Shown here: piece after piece, positions 3,013-10,931 of the stretch
Position numbering within the stretch: the first letter of the stretch is position 1
Layout of the letters: every line of letters begins with the position of its first letter
Source of the DNA: a virus
Taxonomy: Duplodnaviria; Heunggongvirae; Uroviricota; Caudoviricetes
Length of the DNA stretch: 10,931 nucleotides
IMG/VR virus record: IMGVR_UViG_2663763377_000009
Reading direction: 5' to 3' (one strand)
Position numbers and translations under genes: made by a program
Notes under the pieces: generated by a model
What the model saw: the letters and a program-made list of their open reading frames with translations, nothing else
Database searches by the model: none
What the model was told of the DNA's origin: nothing

Positions 3013-3693
3013 TCATCGCCATTGCTCCCCAAATACAAAACCAATTTCAGCCAGTGCCTCGTCCATTTTTTCGATGAACTCCGGCACCATCTCGTCAAAA
3101 CTCGCCATGTACTTTTCATCCCGCTCAACCACGACATAATGCAGTCCTTCACGCTTCATACGCGGGTCATAGTTGGCAAAGTACCAGGCATCTTTTCGTG
3201 TTACCCACATGCTGTACTGCACCTGGGCCATGTAAGCCGACTTTATGGCCTCGAAACCACCGAGCCGGAACTTCATGAAATCCCGGGAGGTAAACGGGCA
3301 TTTCAGCTCAAGGCCATTGCCGTCACTGCATAAACCATCGGGAGAGCAGGCGGTGCGCATACTTTCGTCGCGATAGATGATCGGGGATTCAGTAACATTC
3401 ACGCCGGAAGTGAATTCAAACAGGGTTCTGGCGTCGTTCTCGTACTGTTTTCCCCAGGCCAGCGCCTTAGCATTAACTTCCGGAGCCACACCGGTGCAAA
3501 CCTCAGCCAGCAGGGTGTGGAGGTAGGACATTTTCATGTCAGGCCACTTCTTTCCGGAGCGGGGTTTTGCTATCACGTTGTGAACTTCTGAAGCGGTGAT
3601 GACGCCGAGCCGTAATTTGTGCCACGCATCATCCCCCTGTTCGACAGCTCTCACATCGATCCCGGTACGCTGCAGGATAATGTCCGGTGTCAT
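3013..3693 (-). CDS. exo: Lambda exonuclease (Red-alpha), 226 aa
   Basis: Translation [40 protein letters not shown]... matches my recollection of phage lambda Exo almost residue for residue; same length; directly downstream of bet with ATGA overlap. Confidence 0.95.
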
Positions 3694-5059: not shown

Positions 5060-5336
5060 AAAAACTCCTGCCCGTAAGCTGGGCTGCTGAACATATAGAG
5101 ACTTCTGCGCGTATTCAGGCGGTGGATGGCCGCCGGTTGTCATAACTAAGCCGCCTCGTTGAAGCGACTGAGGTATGAGGTGTTGAGTTGATTTCAGCTG
5201 GTCACACCGACGTTCACACGTCCGTTTCACCCCTCGCACTCCCCGGAGCCTGCTGAAATTCAAGCTGCGGATCTAAGCGGTCATCGCAACGGTGAATCAG
5301 GTGGTTGCCGTATCGTTGTGTTGTTGCGATGAACTC

Positions 5337-5365
5337 ATTTAAAACTATAGTTGTTTTACCGTCAA
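5337..5365 (-). promoter_or_regulatory. Putative pL promoter with embedded OL operator (-35 TTGACG, 17-nt spacer, -10 TTAAAT, read on the minus strand)
   Basis: Minus-strand segment gttgTTGACGgtaaaacaactatagttTTAAATgagttc is nearly colinear with the PR segment gttgTTGACTaaaaacaaccatagtttTAATCTtgattc; both carry GTTGTT/AACAAC dyads. Confidence 0.5.
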
Positions 5366-5500
5366 CAACAAAAGTTGTTTCATTGGTTGTTTTAGATATA
5401 ACTGGTTGTATTTAGGATGGATTTATTTTGTGACTTGCATCGCATAGCGATAACTGAAGCGGGGGGTATGGTGGTTTTTTGAACGGTGTGTGATGAGGGG

Positions 5501-5531
5501 AGGCAAAAGAAAACCCGGCACGACGGCCGGG
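5501..5531 (-). terminator. Rho-independent terminator ending the cI to cassette transcript (lambda t-imm equivalent)
   Basis: 6-bp GC stem CCCGGC/GCCGGG with a 6-nt loop, followed on the minus strand by TTTTCTTTTG, 9 nt after the stop of the 168-aa gene. Confidence 0.6.
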
Positions 5532-5539
5532 GAGGGGGG

Positions 5540-6046
5540 TCATTTTAATCTATCAAGGAGTGACTCTCTTTCCTTCTTCTCTGATTCTCTTCGGTTTAAT
5601 AACGCTTTAAACTCTTGAAGCTCAACCATTATTTTATGAACGAATACACTGGTATAGAGAGAAATAAAGAGTAATCCACCTGAAATTTTTAAGACCCTGA
5701 AGAGTAGGGCTTGATCATTTGTGCTTGCTATTAACCCCAAGATTACAAACAAAGTTGAAAATACATAGAAAGCTAATAATAAAACCAATTTCAGTCTCTT
5801 GGATTTGACTATTGGCACTAATCGCCTAACCTCACTAGGGGTTAAAGACGAGTGGTCATTGGCCTCATTTGCCTTAAAAATGGCTTGTATACAATATGAT
5901 AATGGCAATTGCATGAGTCCAACCACAGCCCACGGAGCAGTTAGGACAACACCCGGTGTAATATAGCCCAATGCTGACTTGAACAAAAAGTAACCAGCAA
6001 AATAGAAGACCAACATACCAATAAGGTGGATGATGTTCGATTTCAT
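5540..6046 (-). CDS. Small integral membrane protein, 168 aa, about four predicted transmembrane helices and a charged C-terminal tail; occupies the rexB position
   Basis: Hydrophobic stretches IIHLIGMLVFYFAGYFLF, GVVLTAPWAVVGLMQLPL, LKLVLLLAFYVFSTLFVILGLIAS, LLFISLYTSVFV; strong AAGGAGG 7 nt upstream of the ATG; AT-rich codon usage unlike flanking genes; no similarity to RexB that I can see. Confidence 0.75.
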   Translation of the reverse strand: MKSNIIHLIGMLVFYFAGYFLFKSALGYITPGVVLTAPWAVVGLMQLPLSYCIQAIFKANEANDHSSLTPSEVRRLVPIVKSKRLKLVLLLAFYVFSTLFVILGLIASTNDQALLFRVLKISGGLLFISLYTSVFVHKIMVELQEFKALLNRRESEKKERESLLDRLK

Positions 6047-6067: not shown

Positions 6068-7090
6068 TTATTTTGCAACCAATTCTCCGGCATCAAGTTT
6101 TGAGAACAGCCACTTATGCATTTTTAAGAATAAATCATTTTCATCAATAATGCCATTGTTATATTCAACGCTAATTTTTCCGGATAATTTTATCTCTTTT
6201 CCCGTTATTTCCCCACCGCCTTGAAGTTTGATGCTAATATCATCCTCATCTAGATGTCGTAGTGAGGTAGCAATACTGTCTATAACAGCTTGACCGCTAT
6301 CATTTGTTTTTCTGAAGTATGTAATCTCGAGGCTTACTTGTAAATTGGCCTCATCTAATGAATCTTTAATGTTTATATCATTTGCCCAGTTATCGCCAAA
6401 AAATGCTTTTAGTAGCGCACCTCCTTTCCCTATTGGGCGGTATTTTATTGTCTTCACCGAACCATTTGAAAAGGAGGGTGTTTGGTTCTCTGAATTTTTA
6501 ACTTCTGAAGTAATGGGTAATCCACCAATTTTTATGCTCTTGGCTGGTGCTTTCTCCATTTTTTTCATCGTTTCTTCGGATGGCTTATCTTGAAGCATTA
6601 ACACAGATTCTTTTTCATCTGTGAATGTATTAATTAGCCAATTCAAATGCGCCTCAAGCTCCCTTGCTCGAAGCGATGTGGATTGAACGATCATGACATG
6701 GTTGTTTAGTACACCAAAATATAAAATTGAATCTACAAACTCTCTTTTTTTGTCACTACGTTTATCTCCATCAATAATTATATCATTAGACGTGATGGAG
6801 TTAATGTCATAAAATTTAACATTATCACTAAGCTCTAATAGAGACTGGCTTTTGTCTTTTTCAAATAAAACCAGTTGCCCAAAAAGTATAGTTTTGTATG
6901 TGTCGCTTTTATTTAAGAAACGACACCCCGAATTTTCATCTGAAGGTGTTATTTTTTCTTGTCTACTAAGTACTTTTTCTGCAACGCCGCCCTCACCTAT
7001 AATACTAAGTAGTATGTTTTGTAATGATGATTTGCTGTGTGGGATTACTGCTTTTTTATAATGAACGACTTTTTGTCTGTTATCTTTCAT
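6068..7090 (-). CDS. Unknown soluble protein, 340 aa; occupies the rexA position downstream of the repressor
   Basis: Long uninterrupted ORF, Lys/Asp/Asn/Ile-rich, no catalytic motif recognised; separated by 21 nt from the downstream membrane protein gene, suggesting one operon. Confidence 0.75.
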   Translation of the reverse strand: MKDNRQKVVHYKKAVIPHSKSSLQNILLSIIGEGGVAEKVLSRQEKITPSDENSGCRFLNKSDTYKTILFGQLVLFEKDKSQSLLELSDNVKFYDINSITSNDIIIDGDKRSDKKREFVDSILYFGVLNNHVMIVQSTSLRARELEAHLNWLINTFTDEKESVLMLQDKPSEETMKKMEKAPAKSIKIGGLPITSEVKNSENQTPSFSNGSVKTIKYRPIGKGGALLKAFFGDNWANDINIKDSLDEANLQVSLEITYFRKTNDSGQAVIDSIATSLRHLDEDDISIKLQGGGEITGKEIKLSGKISVEYNNGIIDENDLFLKMHKWLFSKLDAGELVAK

Positions 7091-7147: not shown

Positions 7148-7177
7148 ATAGCTACCGATAACGTAATCGGTAGCTAT
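7148..7177. promoter_or_regulatory. Perfect 12-bp inverted repeat ATAGCTACCGAT (loop aacgta) ATCGGTAGCTAT between the repressor gene and the cassette
   Basis: Read directly: 7148-7159 is the reverse complement of 7166-7177. On the minus-strand RNA the hairpin is followed by AAGAAATTTTTAT, so it may be a partial terminator or attenuator, or else a protein-binding palindrome. Confidence 0.4.
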
Positions 7178-7212
7178 TACAAATCAACCAAAGGTAATTC
7201 TTTACATACTAC

Positions 7213-7902
7213 CTACCCATGCTTCCTGTAGGTCTGCGGCATGCTCCCAATAACTTTCCCGAAGATAAACACCCGGTTCATCTCGTCTTTCTCAATTGGG
7301 TCCCACGGCGAGTAGCTCTTGTTATCAGAGATAACCAGTAGCTTATCCTTCATCATTTGCAGGCGCTTTACATGGGCTGTGTCGTCGTACAGAAACGCAT
7401 AGATACCATCACCGTCGAAAGATTTAACTGTGATATCAACGAACAGCAGATCACCTGGTTCGATCGTTCCTGACATGCTGTCACCACGCACGTTAATGAT
7501 GCGGATATTTTCCGCCTTCCTACCATCGAACATGTGACGAGCATCGTCAAACGAGTACTCAACCGAGCGTAGAACTTCTACAAACTCACGGTTGATGACT
7601 CCCGGCCCAGCACTGACTTCTATATCAAGAACGTCAATCTTAAAGTATTTGGAATGGCTGACAGTTGATAGTATTGGTTGCACTGTACTGTCTGACATAT
7701 TTCCAACGCCAGAAGATAACCATTCTGCGCGCACACCCAAAGCGTTCGCGATCTCCACGATTTTAGTTGTTTGGTTAGCTTTCCCTGTTTCGATTTTCTG
7801 AATAGCAGCTTGGCTAACCCCGACCAAATCCCCAAGCGCCTTTTGTGTAAGGCCTCGCGCTAATCTGGCTTCTTTAAGTCTTTCTGAGAGTGTTGTTTTC
7901 AT
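7213..7902 (-). CDS. cI-like prophage repressor, 229 aa: N-terminal HTH (XRE type) plus C-terminal S24 LexA-like autopeptidase domain
   Basis: HTH region LTQKALGDLVGVSQAAIQKIETGK; S24 signature GDSM ... VKRL (Ser/Lys dyad); divergent from a Cro-like gene across an operator region. Start set at 7902 because the 22-codon extension to 7968 would run through the PR promoter. Confidence 0.85.
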   Translation of the reverse strand: MKTTLSERLKEARLARGLTQKALGDLVGVSQAAIQKIETGKANQTTKIVEIANALGVRAEWLSSGVGNMSDSTVQPILSTVSHSKYFKIDVLDIEVSAGPGVINREFVEVLRSVEYSFDDARHMFDGRKAENIRIINVRGDSMSGTIEPGDLLFVDITVKSFDGDGIYAFLYDDTAHVKRLQMMKDKLLVISDNKSYSPWDPIEKDEMNRVFIFGKVIGSMPQTYRKHG

Positions 7903-7908
7903 AGTCCA

Positions 7909-7937
7909 AATGTACAACCAAGGTTTTATTCCATCAA
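7909..7937 (-). promoter_or_regulatory. Putative PRM (-35 TTGATG, 17-nt spacer, -10 TACATT on the minus strand), predicted start site at or beside the cI ATG (leaderless)
   Basis: Hexamers read from the sequence; the -10 ends 6 nt before the ATG at 7902, and there is no Shine-Dalgarno, mirroring lambda PRM/cI. Confidence 0.4.
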
Positions 7938-7943
7938 ACGAAA

Positions 7944-7979
7944 ATGGTTGTTGACTAAAAACAACCATAGTTTTAATCT
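7944..7979 (+). promoter_or_regulatory. PR promoter (-35 TTGACT 7951-7956, -10 TAATCT 7974-7979) overlapping a 9-bp-arm dyad operator ATGGTTGTT (gactaaa) AACAACCAT
   Basis: Inverted repeat 7944-7952 / 7960-7968 read directly; 17-nt spacer; GGAGG 5 nt before the ATG at 8007. Confidence 0.55.
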
Positions 7980-8006
7980 TGATTCAAATTAACCACGGAG
8001 GTTGTT

Positions 8007-8237
8007 ATGAACCCAGCTATCAAAACAGCGATCAATATCGTTGGTTCACAAAAGAAACTGGGCGCTGCCTGCGAAGTTTCACAGCAGGCCGTCTATAAGT
8101 GGCTTCACAACAAAGCAAAGGTATCCCCTGAACATGTCGGCAGCATTGTTACGGCTACTGGTGGAGTAGTGAAGGCATACCAGATTCGCCCGGATCTTCC
8201 GAAGTTGTTTCCACACACCGAAAAGAACGCAGCTTAA
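8007..8237 (+). CDS. Cro-like HTH regulator of the YdaS family (76 aa)
   Basis: Divergent from the repressor; motif AINIVGSQKKLGAACEVSQQAVYKWL ... ATGG resembles YdaS-type small HTH proteins of E. coli prophages. Confidence 0.8.
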   Translation: MNPAIKTAINIVGSQKKLGAACEVSQQAVYKWLHNKAKVSPEHVGSIVTATGGVVKAYQIRPDLPKLFPHTEKNAA

Positions 8238-8249
8238 ATTTCCATTTCA

Positions 8250-8262
8250 CGCTCTTTAACAA
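8250..8262 (+). promoter_or_regulatory. boxA element CGCTCTTTAACAA (nutR-like position between the cro and cII analogues)
   Basis: Matches the boxA consensus (rrn boxA GCTCTTTAACAA; lambda nut boxA CGCTCTTA...). No GC-rich boxB-like hairpin is evident directly downstream. Confidence 0.5.
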
Positions 8263-8306
8263 TAAGCAATCAACTTAACAGTCAATTCAAACTAAAGGAG
8301 TCAATT

Positions 8307-8846
8307 ATGCAACCACTTACATACCAACAGACTAGCGGATTTAGCCCGACTGCGGTGATAAATCGTTCTCAAACAAAACAGGTGCCAGGCCACGAAAAAA
8401 TCCGTGATGCCGTCCGCGCCTGGTCGGCTGAAGATAATCAGGATGTCGTTGCCACACTCATTGTGAATGAGTATCGGGAGCAGGGCGGCGGCGCCATCGA
8501 TTTCCCTGATGATGTCAGCCGTGCACGCCAGAAGCTGTTCCGCTTCCTCGATAACAAATTCGATTCTGAAAAATACCGAAATAACGTGCGTGAACTGACC
8601 CCGGCAATTCTGGCGGTACTACCGCTGGAATATCGCGGTTACCTGGTTGAGCAGGATAGCTTCATGGCTAGGTTGGCTGAAATGGAAAAGGAACTCAGTG
8701 AGGCAAAACAGGCTGTCATTCTCAACGCACCACGCCACCAGAAACTGAAGGAGATGAGTGAAGGTATTGTGTCGATGTTTCGTGTGGACCCGGATCTGGC
8801 TGGTCCATTGATGGCGATGGTTACCACCATGTTGGGGGCAATATGA
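8307..8846 (+). CDS. YdaT-family protein (179 aa), cII functional analogue candidate
   Basis: Motifs EYREQGGGAIDFP and LTPAILAVLPLEYRGYL resemble recalled YdaT of the Rac and CP-933P prophages; located where lambda has cII; AAGGAG 6 nt upstream. Confidence 0.7.
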   Translation: MQPLTYQQTSGFSPTAVINRSQTKQVPGHEKIRDAVRAWSAEDNQDVVATLIVNEYREQGGGAIDFPDDVSRARQKLFRFLDNKFDSEKYRNNVRELTPAILAVLPLEYRGYLVEQDSFMARLAEMEKELSEAKQAVILNAPRHQKLKEMSEGIVSMFRVDPDLAGPLMAMVTTMLGAI

Positions 8847-8932
8847 CAGGCTCAGAAATGGCGAAAGCCGGTCTGCGGGAACAGAGCCGACTTTCAGGTG
8901 CAAATCGTAACACACTCATTGCGGGAGGAATT

Positions 8933-9862: not shown

Positions 9863-10449
9863 AAAATATTGCCGCGCAGATGATTAACTTTGACCGTGAG
9901 CAGATGCGTCGAATCGCCAACAACATGCCGGAACAATACGACGAAAAGCCGCAGGTGCAGCAGGTGGCGCAGATCATCAACGGTGTGTTCAGCCAGCTGC
10001 TTGCGACATTTCCGGCAAGCCTCGCGAACCGCGACCAGAACGAGCTGAACGAAATCCGCCGTCAGTGGGTTATGGCTTTCCGTGAAAATGGAATTACCAC
10101 TATGGAGCAGGTTAACGCCGGAATGCGCGTGGCCCGCCGACAGGAGCGACCATTCCTGCCGTCGCCCGGCCAGTTCGTAGCGTGGTGTAAGCAGAGTGGC
10201 GGGGCGTTAGGTATCACTGTTGACCAAGTCATAACCGAATACTGGGATTGGCGTAATCGTTCCTTCGAATTCACTTCCAGCGAGCATTTCCCGTGGTCAC
10301 AGCCTGTCATGTACCACATCTGCGTCGAACTGCGCCACCGCAGCACAGAGCGCCAGTTAACGCATGGTGAGCTGGCGCGTGAAGCCGGCGATCTGCTGGA
10401 CATGTGGGAGAGGCGCGTCACCGAGGGCAAACCAGTACCGCCTGTATAG
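9859..10449 (+). CDS. P: Replication protein P homologue (196 aa), N-terminal ~110 aa lambda-like, C-terminal half divergent and apparently shorter than lambda P
   Basis: MKNIAAQMINFDREQMRRIANNMPEQYDEKPQVQQVAQIINGVFSQLLATFPASLANRDQNE... matches recalled lambda P up to about FVAWC; the rest aligns only loosely; start overlaps the O stop (ATGA). Confidence 0.8.
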   Translation: MKNIAAQMINFDREQMRRIANNMPEQYDEKPQVQQVAQIINGVFSQLLATFPASLANRDQNELNEIRRQWVMAFRENGITTMEQVNAGMRVARRQERPFLPSPGQFVAWCKQSGGALGITVDQVITEYWDWRNRSFEFTSSEHFPWSQPVMYHICVELRHRSTERQLTHGELAREAGDLLDMWERRVTEGKPVPPV

Positions 10450-10510
10450 TAAAATACTATATTATTTTCTATGTATCACATGCACAGCGATAAAACCGGA
10501 TAAATGATTT

Positions 10511-10542
10511 ACACTGTAAAGATCTATCTGTCTTTACAGTGT
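10511..10542. promoter_or_regulatory. Perfect 12-bp inverted repeat ACACTGTAAAGA (8-nt spacer) TCTTTACAGTGT, ~30 bp upstream of the hicA promoter
   Basis: Read directly; no U-tract follows on the plus strand, so an operator (for example for HicB) or a structural element is as likely as a terminator for P. Confidence 0.4.
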
Positions 10543-10570
10543 GGTTCAGAAGTCATGCGAATGAAATAAT

Positions 10571-10599
10571 TTGCTTTTGTGTGTATGCGTGTGTATAAT
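10571..10599 (+). promoter_or_regulatory. Strong sigma-70 promoter for hicAB (-35 TTGCTT, 17-nt spacer, TG-extended -10 TATAAT)
   Basis: Perfect TATAAT at 10594-10599 with TG at -15/-14; GGGAGG RBS at 10613-10618 before the hicA ATG. Confidence 0.6.
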
Positions 10600-10622
10600 T
10601 GTTTTCAGGTTAGGGAGGACAT

Positions 10623-10805
10623 ATGAAATCTGCTGACCTGTTGAAAGAACTGATAGCTGCTGGTTGCGAGTTGAAACGGCATAAGGCAAGCAGTCACCAG
10701 ATATGGTGGTCGCCAATAACAGGAAAAACTTTTCCTGTTCCTCATCCTAAAAAGGACTTGCCGCTAGGTACTGTCAGATCGATCAAAAAAATGGCGGGGA
10801 TTTAA
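10623..10805 (+). CDS. hicA: HicA-family toxin (mRNA interferase), 60 aa
   Basis: MKSADLLKELIAAGCELKRHKASSHQIWWSPITGKTFPVPHPKKDLPLGTVRSIKKMAGI fits the HicA/YcfA pattern (ELxRxKGSH ... VPxHxxKDLxxGTxxSIxKxAG). Confidence 0.85.
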   Translation: MKSADLLKELIAAGCELKRHKASSHQIWWSPITGKTFPVPHPKKDLPLGTVRSIKKMAGI

Positions 10806-10829
10806 TCCCCGCCGACTTTGGAGGTAGCC

Positions 10830-10931
10830 ATGTTCTTTTCTGTTGGTGTCGAAACACCGAAAGATGATCATACAGCATACGGTATCACTGTTCCGGTTTT
10901 TGATTGCTTTGATTTTGGATGTGTTTCTGCT
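10830..10931 (+). CDS. hicB: HicB-family antitoxin, 5-prime partial (runs off the window end)
   Basis: N-terminus MFFSVGVETPKDDHTAYGITVPVFDCFDFGC... fits the HicB N-terminal pattern (YxVxxE...GYxVxVPDLPGC); GGAGG 5 nt upstream; directly after hicA. Confidence 0.7.
   Translation, partial: MFFSVGVETPKDDHTAYGITVPVFDCFDFGCVSA

Follow-up and report, generated by a model that had tools for sequence, protein, structure and literature searches.

What does a boxA do in a lambdoid phage that appears to have neither N with nut sites nor a put RNA, the two known solutions for the control of lambdoid early genes? The question is raised by a cro-cII junction at which a lineage of this kind keeps a perfect host-factor loading signal at the nutR position. 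The window, that is, the whole stretch of DNA that was analysed (10,931 nt; IMG/VR record IMGVR_UViG_2663763377_000009), is the early region of a lambdoid Escherichia coli prophage integrated beside icd. Its positions 7900-8900 are 100% identical to strain AR_0077 and approximately 98.8% identical to the isolated phages PhiR5_1 and PhiR34_1. From left to right, the gene order is int, xis, exo, bet, gam, kil, two morons, cI, cro, cII, O and P, and the features on which the argument draws are the following:

3013-3693, minus strand: exo
5330-5410, minus strand: OL/pL, placed by comparison of the window with Perceval
5540-6046 and 6068-7090, minus strand: two moron genes of unassigned role
7213-7902, minus strand: cI repressor, with HTH and S24 peptidase domain
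7944-7985, plus strand: OR/pR region, with the operator palindrome ATGGTTGTTGACTAAAAACAACCAT and an embedded -35-like TTGACT
8007-8237, plus strand: cro analogue of the YdaS family, 76 aa (Pfam YdaS_toxin/P22_Cro)
8238-8306, plus strand: cro-cII spacer of 69 nt, unstructured, G-poor and C-rich (15 C, 6 G), rut-like
8250-8262, plus strand: boxA, CGCTCTTTAACAA in DNA and CGCUCUUUAACAA on the pR transcript
8280-8287 and 8299-8306, plus strand: direct repeat, two copies of AGTCAATT with a 19-nt period, directly before the ydaT ATG
8295-8300, plus strand: Shine-Dalgarno AAGGAG of cII/ydaT, 6 nt before the ATG
8307-8846, plus strand: cII analogue of the YdaT family, 179 aa (Pfam YdaT_toxin; PHROG 'CII-like transcriptional activator')

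The pR promoter was assigned via operator repeats common to pL, the motif ttgttgac...aacaacYatagtttta being present both in the cI-cro intergenic region and at pL. The position of pL was determined by comparing the window and PhiR5_1 with the heteroimmune phage Perceval. Left of the cI N-terminal domain, the window and Perceval are near-identical except for approximately 80 nt at 5330-5410, and within the left arm OL/pL alone is immunity-specific. The boxA-bearing transcript would start at OR/pR (7944-7985), its exact hexamers being uncertain. On this rightward early transcript, boxA lies on the sense strand, 3' of OR/pR and cro, with no terminator-like site detected between OR/pR and boxA. 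boxA starts 12 nt past the cro stop codon and ends, at 8262, 32 nt short of the ydaT Shine-Dalgarno; cII/ydaT is the first gene 3' of boxA.

Several observations concern the surrounding genes. Between cI and pL, in the slot that rexAB occupies in lambda, the window has a 340-aa phrog_3482 gene and a 168-aa gene, the product of the latter being annotated as a transmembrane protein in Perceval; in PhiR5_1 (L001 7618-9191), the slot is occupied by HipA/HipD. The morons in this slot are swappable, and a strong terminator at 5514-5531 closes it. Directly 3' of cI, at 7150-7180, there is a perfect 12-bp hairpin (ATAGCTACCGAT-aacgtaa-ATCGGTAGCTAT), also present in Perceval, which is probably a terminator or stabiliser of the cI/pRM transcript. 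In the region 10440-10931, the P gene of the window stops early, with 196 aa against 233-240 aa in PhiR5_1 and AR_0077. After it, a toxin gene is found at 10623-10805 (phrog_353 'toxin'; HicA-like on reading of the sequence), followed by the start of an apparent HicB-like partner from 10831 onward, with a bidirectional-looking terminator hairpin at 10793-10813.

The preliminary description of this DNA, made from the letters alone, had reported an exact consensus boxA at 8250-8262 between the Cro analogue and the cII analogue, at the place equivalent to nutR. Both parts of this claim were borne out. The pattern YGCTCTTW has a single match in the window when both strands are scanned, and this match is boxA; the identity of the two flanking genes agrees with the Pfam and PHROG assignments. 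The boxA is identical at 12 of 13 positions to UGCUCUUUAACAA, which we take to be the E. coli rrn boxA, only the first base being different. It is, in addition, the only exact match in the window, at 8251-8261, to GYTCTTTAANA (core GCUCUUUA), the boxA consensus derived from functional sites by Baniulyte et al. (2017; PMC5725501). By chance, 0.07 matches to GYTCTTTAANA are expected per window, with at least one match in 13 of 200 shuffles, and the expectation scaled arithmetically to one 69-nt spacer on one strand is approximately 2e-4. The feature is real and non-random, and by the boxA criteria that can be read from sequence it appears to be a genuine boxA RNA signal. The window boxA carries U at position 8; a U-to-A change at that base in the lambda boxA is the proposed cause of weaker NusB-NusE binding (PMC3177189). 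On our reading, the 8 nt recognised by NusB-NusE (PMC3177189) would fall inside the stretch held in common with the rrn boxA.

RNA folding supported a further statement of the preliminary description, namely that no boxB-like stem-loop follows this boxA. Folding of the 48 nt that follow boxA gives -2.4 kcal/mol (z +0.17), which is the level of shuffled sequence, while the equivalent stretch reaches -6.4 to -17.9 kcal/mol among six N-type relatives and -14.1 kcal/mol for the nutR of lambda. The RNA of 8225-8320 as a whole folds at -5.0 kcal/mol (z +0.55), and no significant hairpin was found in the 90 nt upstream of boxA (z -0.52 against shuffled sequence). A divergent boxB, which had been offered as one way to account for the missing stem-loop, was rejected because the RNA on both sides of boxA is at the level of shuffles and no nutL partner was found. 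An rrn-style boxB upstream of boxA was also sought by folding the same 90 nt, and none was found. Nor was there a G/U-rich boxC downstream, the 44 nt after boxA holding 6 G and no GU-rich run. A scan of the whole window against Rfam (E up to 1) returned two sub-threshold irrelevant matches and none at 8238-8306. The boxA RNA is thus predicted to be single-stranded and hence accessible.

The composition of the spacer is that of a possible Rho loading region. The C/G ratio in 78-nt segments over the spacer is 2.0-2.6, in the top 1-2% or so of the window, and the segment at 8228 has a ratio of 2.25, in the top 2.2% of the plus strand. In lambda, the annotated rutA of tR1 overlaps boxA.

The preliminary description had also stated that the N gene is missing, and the left operon agrees with this. 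The pL transcript has a 190-nt leader and runs into kil, gam, bet and exo, with no antiterminator-family match among the left-operon ORFs and no antiterminator in PHROG and Pfam scans of 20 window ORFs. PhiR5_1, an isolated phage of the same layout, has no annotated N either; Q alone is annotated. A second boxA or nut site was sought as YGCTCTTW on both strands of the window and 3' of pL in 80 related IMG/VR contigs, and none was found, while nutL is present in all six N-type relatives. To cover the put solution, a covariance model was built from HK022 putL and putR, HK639 putL, phiEt88 putL and putR, and UPF_BP1 putL, the HK639 sites being taken from the GenBank annotation. Run on the HK022 and HK639 loci, the model recovers its training sites there at 72-93 bits. 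With E up to 10, it gave no match in the window or in its close relatives PhiR5_1, Perceval and the AR_0077 prophage. From these data, the phage group has neither N/nut nor a recognisable put.

The pL leader was considered separately as a candidate put-like RNA (5335-5140, minus strand) and was discarded, its fold having a z of -1.3 and both BLAST and the covariance model being negative. This leader does have a conserved 10-bp stem, formed in the first 50 nt or so of the pL transcript (5283-5335, minus strand) by CAUCGCAACG and CGUUGCGAUG around a 32-nt loop. The stem is kept in the heteroimmune Perceval and is not put-like; a similar motif follows pL in HK639, and an apparent partial likeness of the leader to HK639 is limited to a short motif directly after pL.

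The origin of the boxA was traced by comparison with six N-type relatives, namely the Stx phage PA28 and prophages of Erwinia tracheiphila, Xenorhabdus, Buttiauxella, Photorhabdus and Arsenophonus, whose Cro proteins are 67-76% identical to the window Cro. In 6/6 of these, a boxA lies 8-33 nt (approximately 35 nt at most) past the cro stop codon and is followed by a boxB-like hairpin. Their nutL has the same layout of boxA and hairpin, with a near-identical boxB in 4/6, and PA28 has an annotated N. In the alignment of the N-type spacers, which are approximately 50% identical overall, GCTCTTTA..CA is the lone conserved island, and the window boxA aligns there. The end of the window cro (...GCAGCTTAA) resembles that of the N-type relatives (GCAGCATAA), and the similarity ends directly after AACAAT. 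Because the relatives' boxA has the same place and the similarity stops after boxA, we conclude that the element is a truncated nutR, the surviving half of a site inherited with cro from an N-dependent lambdoid ancestor; boxB, N and nutL have been lost since in the window lineage.

Other phages have other elements at this junction. In the put-type relatives HK022, phiEt88 and UPF_BP1, putR occupies the cro-cII place. YdaT-type phages, among them HK639, Perceval, a Klebsiella phage and prophages of Kosakonia, K. grimontii and Enterobacter, as well as almost all of a set of 80 IMG/VR loci, have a conserved hairpin GCCGC-(6-7 nt loop)-GCGGC with the cro stop codon in its loop and no boxA. This hairpin was located at 6218-6258 in HK639 (L003), at 5962-5995 in Perceval (L002), in L005 and L009-L011, and in most of L103-L182. 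In most loci, it is followed by CTAACCACGAAAGGGAAAGCA-ATG(ydaT), Perceval and the Klebsiella phage being the exceptions. The hairpin joins approximately six or more unrelated cro alleles to the YdaT module and may be a recombination linker or an RNA element of the cro/cII junction. Where these loci carry the hairpin, the window lineage carries boxA. Among the 80 IMG/VR loci with an HK639-type ydaT, boxA was found at the junction in none, the single match to the pattern lying inside coding sequence, and among all the cro and ydaT loci compared, a boxA without boxB at the junction occurs in the window lineage alone.

The spacer is peculiar to this immunity type; in the others, homology to the window starts no earlier than 8304-8307 and resumes exactly at the ydaT start codon, and no match in E. 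coli genomes begins between boxA and the ydaT ATG. A source for the 44 nt after boxA was sought in 50,697 phage records, and no homologue outside the lineage was recovered.

Two further groups with boxA-like sequences were seen. In Serratia sp. Ag1 (L012), a nutL-like CGCTCTTTAACAAT at approximately 4170 (minus strand) has no strong hairpin behind it, and the cro-cII spacer (6226-6260) holds only a degenerate GACGCTTAATAACA; this may be another lineage with decaying nut sites. An IMG/VR family (L189, L195, L201, L205, L206, L252 and L271) has a shared stretch, approximately 110 nt long in 6/7 members, that ends in AAAAAAGCGCCCTATAGGACGCTT-CGCTCTTTAACAAT and is followed by variable sequence, with a promoter TTGACA-17-CATAAT in 5/7. 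A small hairpin precedes boxA in this family rather than following it, which is the rrn-like order boxB-boxA, and the family may represent another non-lambda use of boxA. A scan of IMG/VR for CGCTCTTTAACAATB gave 114 contexts, which were heterogeneous (coding matches and varied phage types) and provided no usable background for hairpins.

The cro-boxA-spacer-ydaT junction is widespread. It was found in 1515 of 5426 complete E. coli genomes, with 1712 copies in total, the arrangement being fixed there, as well as in 80/80 of the IMG/VR contigs with the identical Cro and in several isolated phages. Since the copies are at least 97% identical and the lineage is young, perfect preservation of boxA says little. 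Among the 80 IMG/VR copies, the 13 nt of boxA show a single change (A9G), and the remaining 56 nt of spacer show three; the per-site rate of change in boxA is not below that of the rest of the spacer, and there is therefore no sign of extra constraint. For the 1515 E. coli genomes, the number of genomes whose best copy differs from the window was counted in 32-nt blocks. The block that contains boxA (8241-8272) differs in 10/1515 genomes, the next spacer block (8273-8304) in 47/1515 and the last 32 nt of cro (8206-8237) in 32/1515. These counts lean towards constraint on boxA and are no more than suggestive, since the genomes share ancestry and BLAST drops mismatches from alignment ends. Length variants occur 3' of boxA, a 12-nt insertion in LD91-1 (L101) and a triplicated 19-nt unit in AF4 (L102), and boxA is intact in both.

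The heteroimmune phages Perceval, 4A7, D2, 1W, 3W, PhiR70_1 and others have the left arm and cII-O-P in common with the window, were isolated as phages and are without boxA. Because they have these genes yet no boxA, the element appears not to be essential for the shared left-arm and cII-O-P genes in them.

The remaining question is what the boxA does on the pR transcript. Binding of NusB-S10 to it is very likely, to judge from its near-identity to the rrn boxA, the U at position 8 and the accessibility of the predicted RNA. Since boxB and N have been lost, any effect must come from host factors alone. Recruitment of Nus factors by a non-N route, which the preliminary description had suggested, is in our view the best reading; it rests on the identity to a high-affinity rrn-type boxA and on the published lone boxA elements in mRNAs (PMC5725501). 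One of these precedents is the leader of suhB, in which a lone boxA recruits SuhB, needs the complete Nus complex and requires neither boxB nor a phage factor, and represses translation of the next gene, with Rho termination following (PMC5725501). In suhB reporters, boxA had an effect at every spacing tested, 2-100 nt from the Shine-Dalgarno (PMC5725501), a range that includes the 32 nt of the window. In the parE-like gene CKO_00699 of C. koseri, repression depends on boxA and on nusB (PMC5725501). By analogy, a Nus complex would assemble at the window boxA, and some Nus-dependent effect on downstream expression is reasonably probable.

As to the direction of such an effect, it is not predictable from sequence, and the authors of that study likewise discuss the action of Nus factors as dependent on context (PMC5725501). 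The published precedent for a lone boxA near a Shine-Dalgarno is repression with Rho termination and not antitermination. We therefore tentatively prefer, as a possibility that stays short of probable, a suhB-like damping of cII translation with Rho-dependent attenuation, because the spacer around boxA is unstructured, C-rich and rut-like, because only 32 nt separate boxA from the Shine-Dalgarno of ydaT, and because of the suhB and parE precedent. In this mechanism, host NusB-S10 would bind boxA on the nascent pR transcript and then assemble NusA, NusG and SuhB on RNA polymerase with no phage protein involved. The Nus complex at boxA would lower the initiation of cII (ydaT) translation and lead to Rho-dependent attenuation, the outcome being a host-factor-dependent, tR1-like valve on the expression of cII, O and P. 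Against attenuation it can be said that it would impose constitutive polarity on O and P, of no obvious benefit to a phage without N. We rank attenuation first and antitermination close behind, antitermination and an inert relic both being serious rivals.

N-independent antitermination of the rrn type would have the lone boxA load a Nus complex that makes pR transcription resistant to Rho, so that polymerase crosses the untranslated spacer and the stretches antisense to the convergent P-Q morons. It is favoured by the 12 of 13 positions held in common with what is presumably the rrn boxA, and it would supply a means of early transcription to a phage that has neither N nor a put RNA. The terrain also fits: the interval from pR to Q in PhiR5_1 and in the AR_0077 prophage has no strong intrinsic terminator on the plus strand but does have antisense stretches of 0.7-3.7 kb that are not translated, which would leave Rho as the chief obstacle between pR and Q. 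In reporter constructs, Nus factors at boxA do prevent Rho termination (cited in PMC5725501); however, repression and not antitermination was the outcome for both natural lone boxA elements of mRNAs that have been tested, and the same authors report that Rho is stopped at native rRNA loci without a need for Nus factors (PMC5725501). The phage itself provides further counter-evidence, since its left operon is without boxA, the element has no rrn-style boxB upstream and no G/U-rich boxC downstream, and the heteroimmune relatives, whose P-to-Q interval also carries convergent morons, do without any boxA. Taken together, rrn-type antitermination from this boxA is unlikely. The stronger form, in which the N-less lineage would use a lone rrn-grade boxA for Rho-resistant early transcription as far as Q, is more doubtful still; if true, it would constitute a third lambdoid strategy of early antitermination beside N/nut and put. 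It is more speculative that the boxA, if highly expressed, would serve as a decoy that titrates NusB-S10 from co-resident N-dependent prophages.

The boxA may, alternatively, be an inert relic, a leftover of nutR that does not measurably affect expression and has been kept only because the young lineage has not had time to lose it. The clear nutR ancestry, with boxB, N and nutL all gone, is what such a relic would look like, and the left operon has no boxA counterpart. The heteroimmune phages manage the same left arm and cII-O-P without boxA, conservation among near-identical copies is uninformative, and one of the 80 IMG/VR copies has A9G inside boxA. Set against this, a transcribed and accessible consensus boxA would be expected to bind NusB-S10 whether it is selected or not, and the suhB boxA acted at every spacing from 2 to 100 nt (PMC5725501). 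Loss of boxB while the full 13-nt extended boxA stayed perfect, and variation of the boxA block in 10 genomes as compared to 32 and 47 of 1515 for the flanks, also speak for more than a remnant. On balance, an inert relic is on the unlikely side.

A third alternative places the function at the level of DNA, as a YdaT operator or a leftward pRE-like promoter, the match to boxA being coincidental or secondary. In CP-933P, YdaT operators and a PRE promoter are found at the ydaS-ydaT junction (PMC9986795). The window spacer has a perfect AATCAA half-site in 8256-8273, and the AGTCAATT repeat reads on the minus strand as TTGACT twice (8282-8306), with a polymorphic copy number, the 19-nt unit being triplicated in AF4; a YdaT site or a pRE-like promoter directed leftward may include the repeat. 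As an operator for YdaT that overlaps boxA, the sequence was, however, rejected, because the match to TTGATTN6AATCAA at boxA has three mismatches, and matches of this quality are not significantly enriched (16 found against 9.8 expected). In addition, the YdaT of the window differs from the characterised YdaT, and a DNA-level element leaves unexplained a 13/13 boxA at the place of the relatives' nutR. This alternative is very improbable. Finally, a full nut system that escaped recognition, its boxB being divergent and its N-like protein encoded elsewhere in the phage, is extremely improbable and effectively excluded: N-like proteins can be oddly placed, as is Gp17 of mEp021 (PMC11893012), but there is no hairpin in the 48 nt downstream or 90 nt upstream of boxA, no second nut site in the window (both strands) or the 80 related contigs, and no antiterminator-family match in the early operons, PhiR5_1 having only Q annotated.

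Comparison with known systems shows how far the window element matches each of them. Like a lambda-type nutR, it lies a few nucleotides past the cro stop codon on the pR transcript, the nearest example by cro homology being the nutR of PA28 (933W/H-19B type), whose boxA is CGCTCTTTAACA, that of lambda being CGCTCTTACACA. Unlike a lambda-type nutR, it is accompanied by no boxB, N or nutL, and thus lacks three of the four defining features of a nut site; the cII downstream is, moreover, of the YdaT type and not of the lambda type. The boxA of rrn leaders, with which it presumably has 12 of 13 nt in common, works in an antitermination complex of NusA, NusB, NusE, NusG, SuhB and S4. Action without a phage protein would be common to the two. 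The window boxA differs in that it lies inside a translated operon ahead of a ribosome-binding site rather than in an rRNA leader, and it is without the upstream boxB and downstream boxC of rrn leaders. The put RNAs of HK022 and HK639 are the known solution for N-less lambdoids, and putR has the same place after a homologous cro in phiEt88 and UPF_BP1, whereas neither the put model nor BLAST found anything of the kind in the window or its close relatives.

The closest functional analogues would be the lone mRNA boxA elements of Baniulyte et al., those of E. coli and Salmonella suhB and of C. koseri CKO_00699. These resemble the window element in matching GYTCTTTAANA, in having no boxB and in lying no more than 50 nt from a start codon, and the complete host Nus complex is expected, by analogy, to act on the window element as well. 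They differ in that the window element is intercistronic in a phage early operon and not in a 5' UTR, derives from a nut site and adjoins the gene of a phage lysogeny regulator. The survey of Baniulyte et al. lists a few prophage-like matches in E. coli, such as a cII gene in S88, and has no ydaT entry (PMC5725501). Literature searches returned no account of an N-less lambdoid phage whose nutR is reduced to boxA.

An active boxA would provide the first case in a phage of regulation by boxA that does not depend on N, and it would tie the expression of cII (YdaT) and of the replication genes directly to the host Nus pool and Rho. It would also offer a natural system for the question, raised in PMC5725501, of what makes a Nus complex at boxA block Rho termination in one case and favour it in another. 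With an inert boxA, the junction would be a clean, datable case of modular recombination dismantling an antitermination system. The significance of the finding would rise substantially if the lone boxA gave N-independent antitermination in this widespread lineage.
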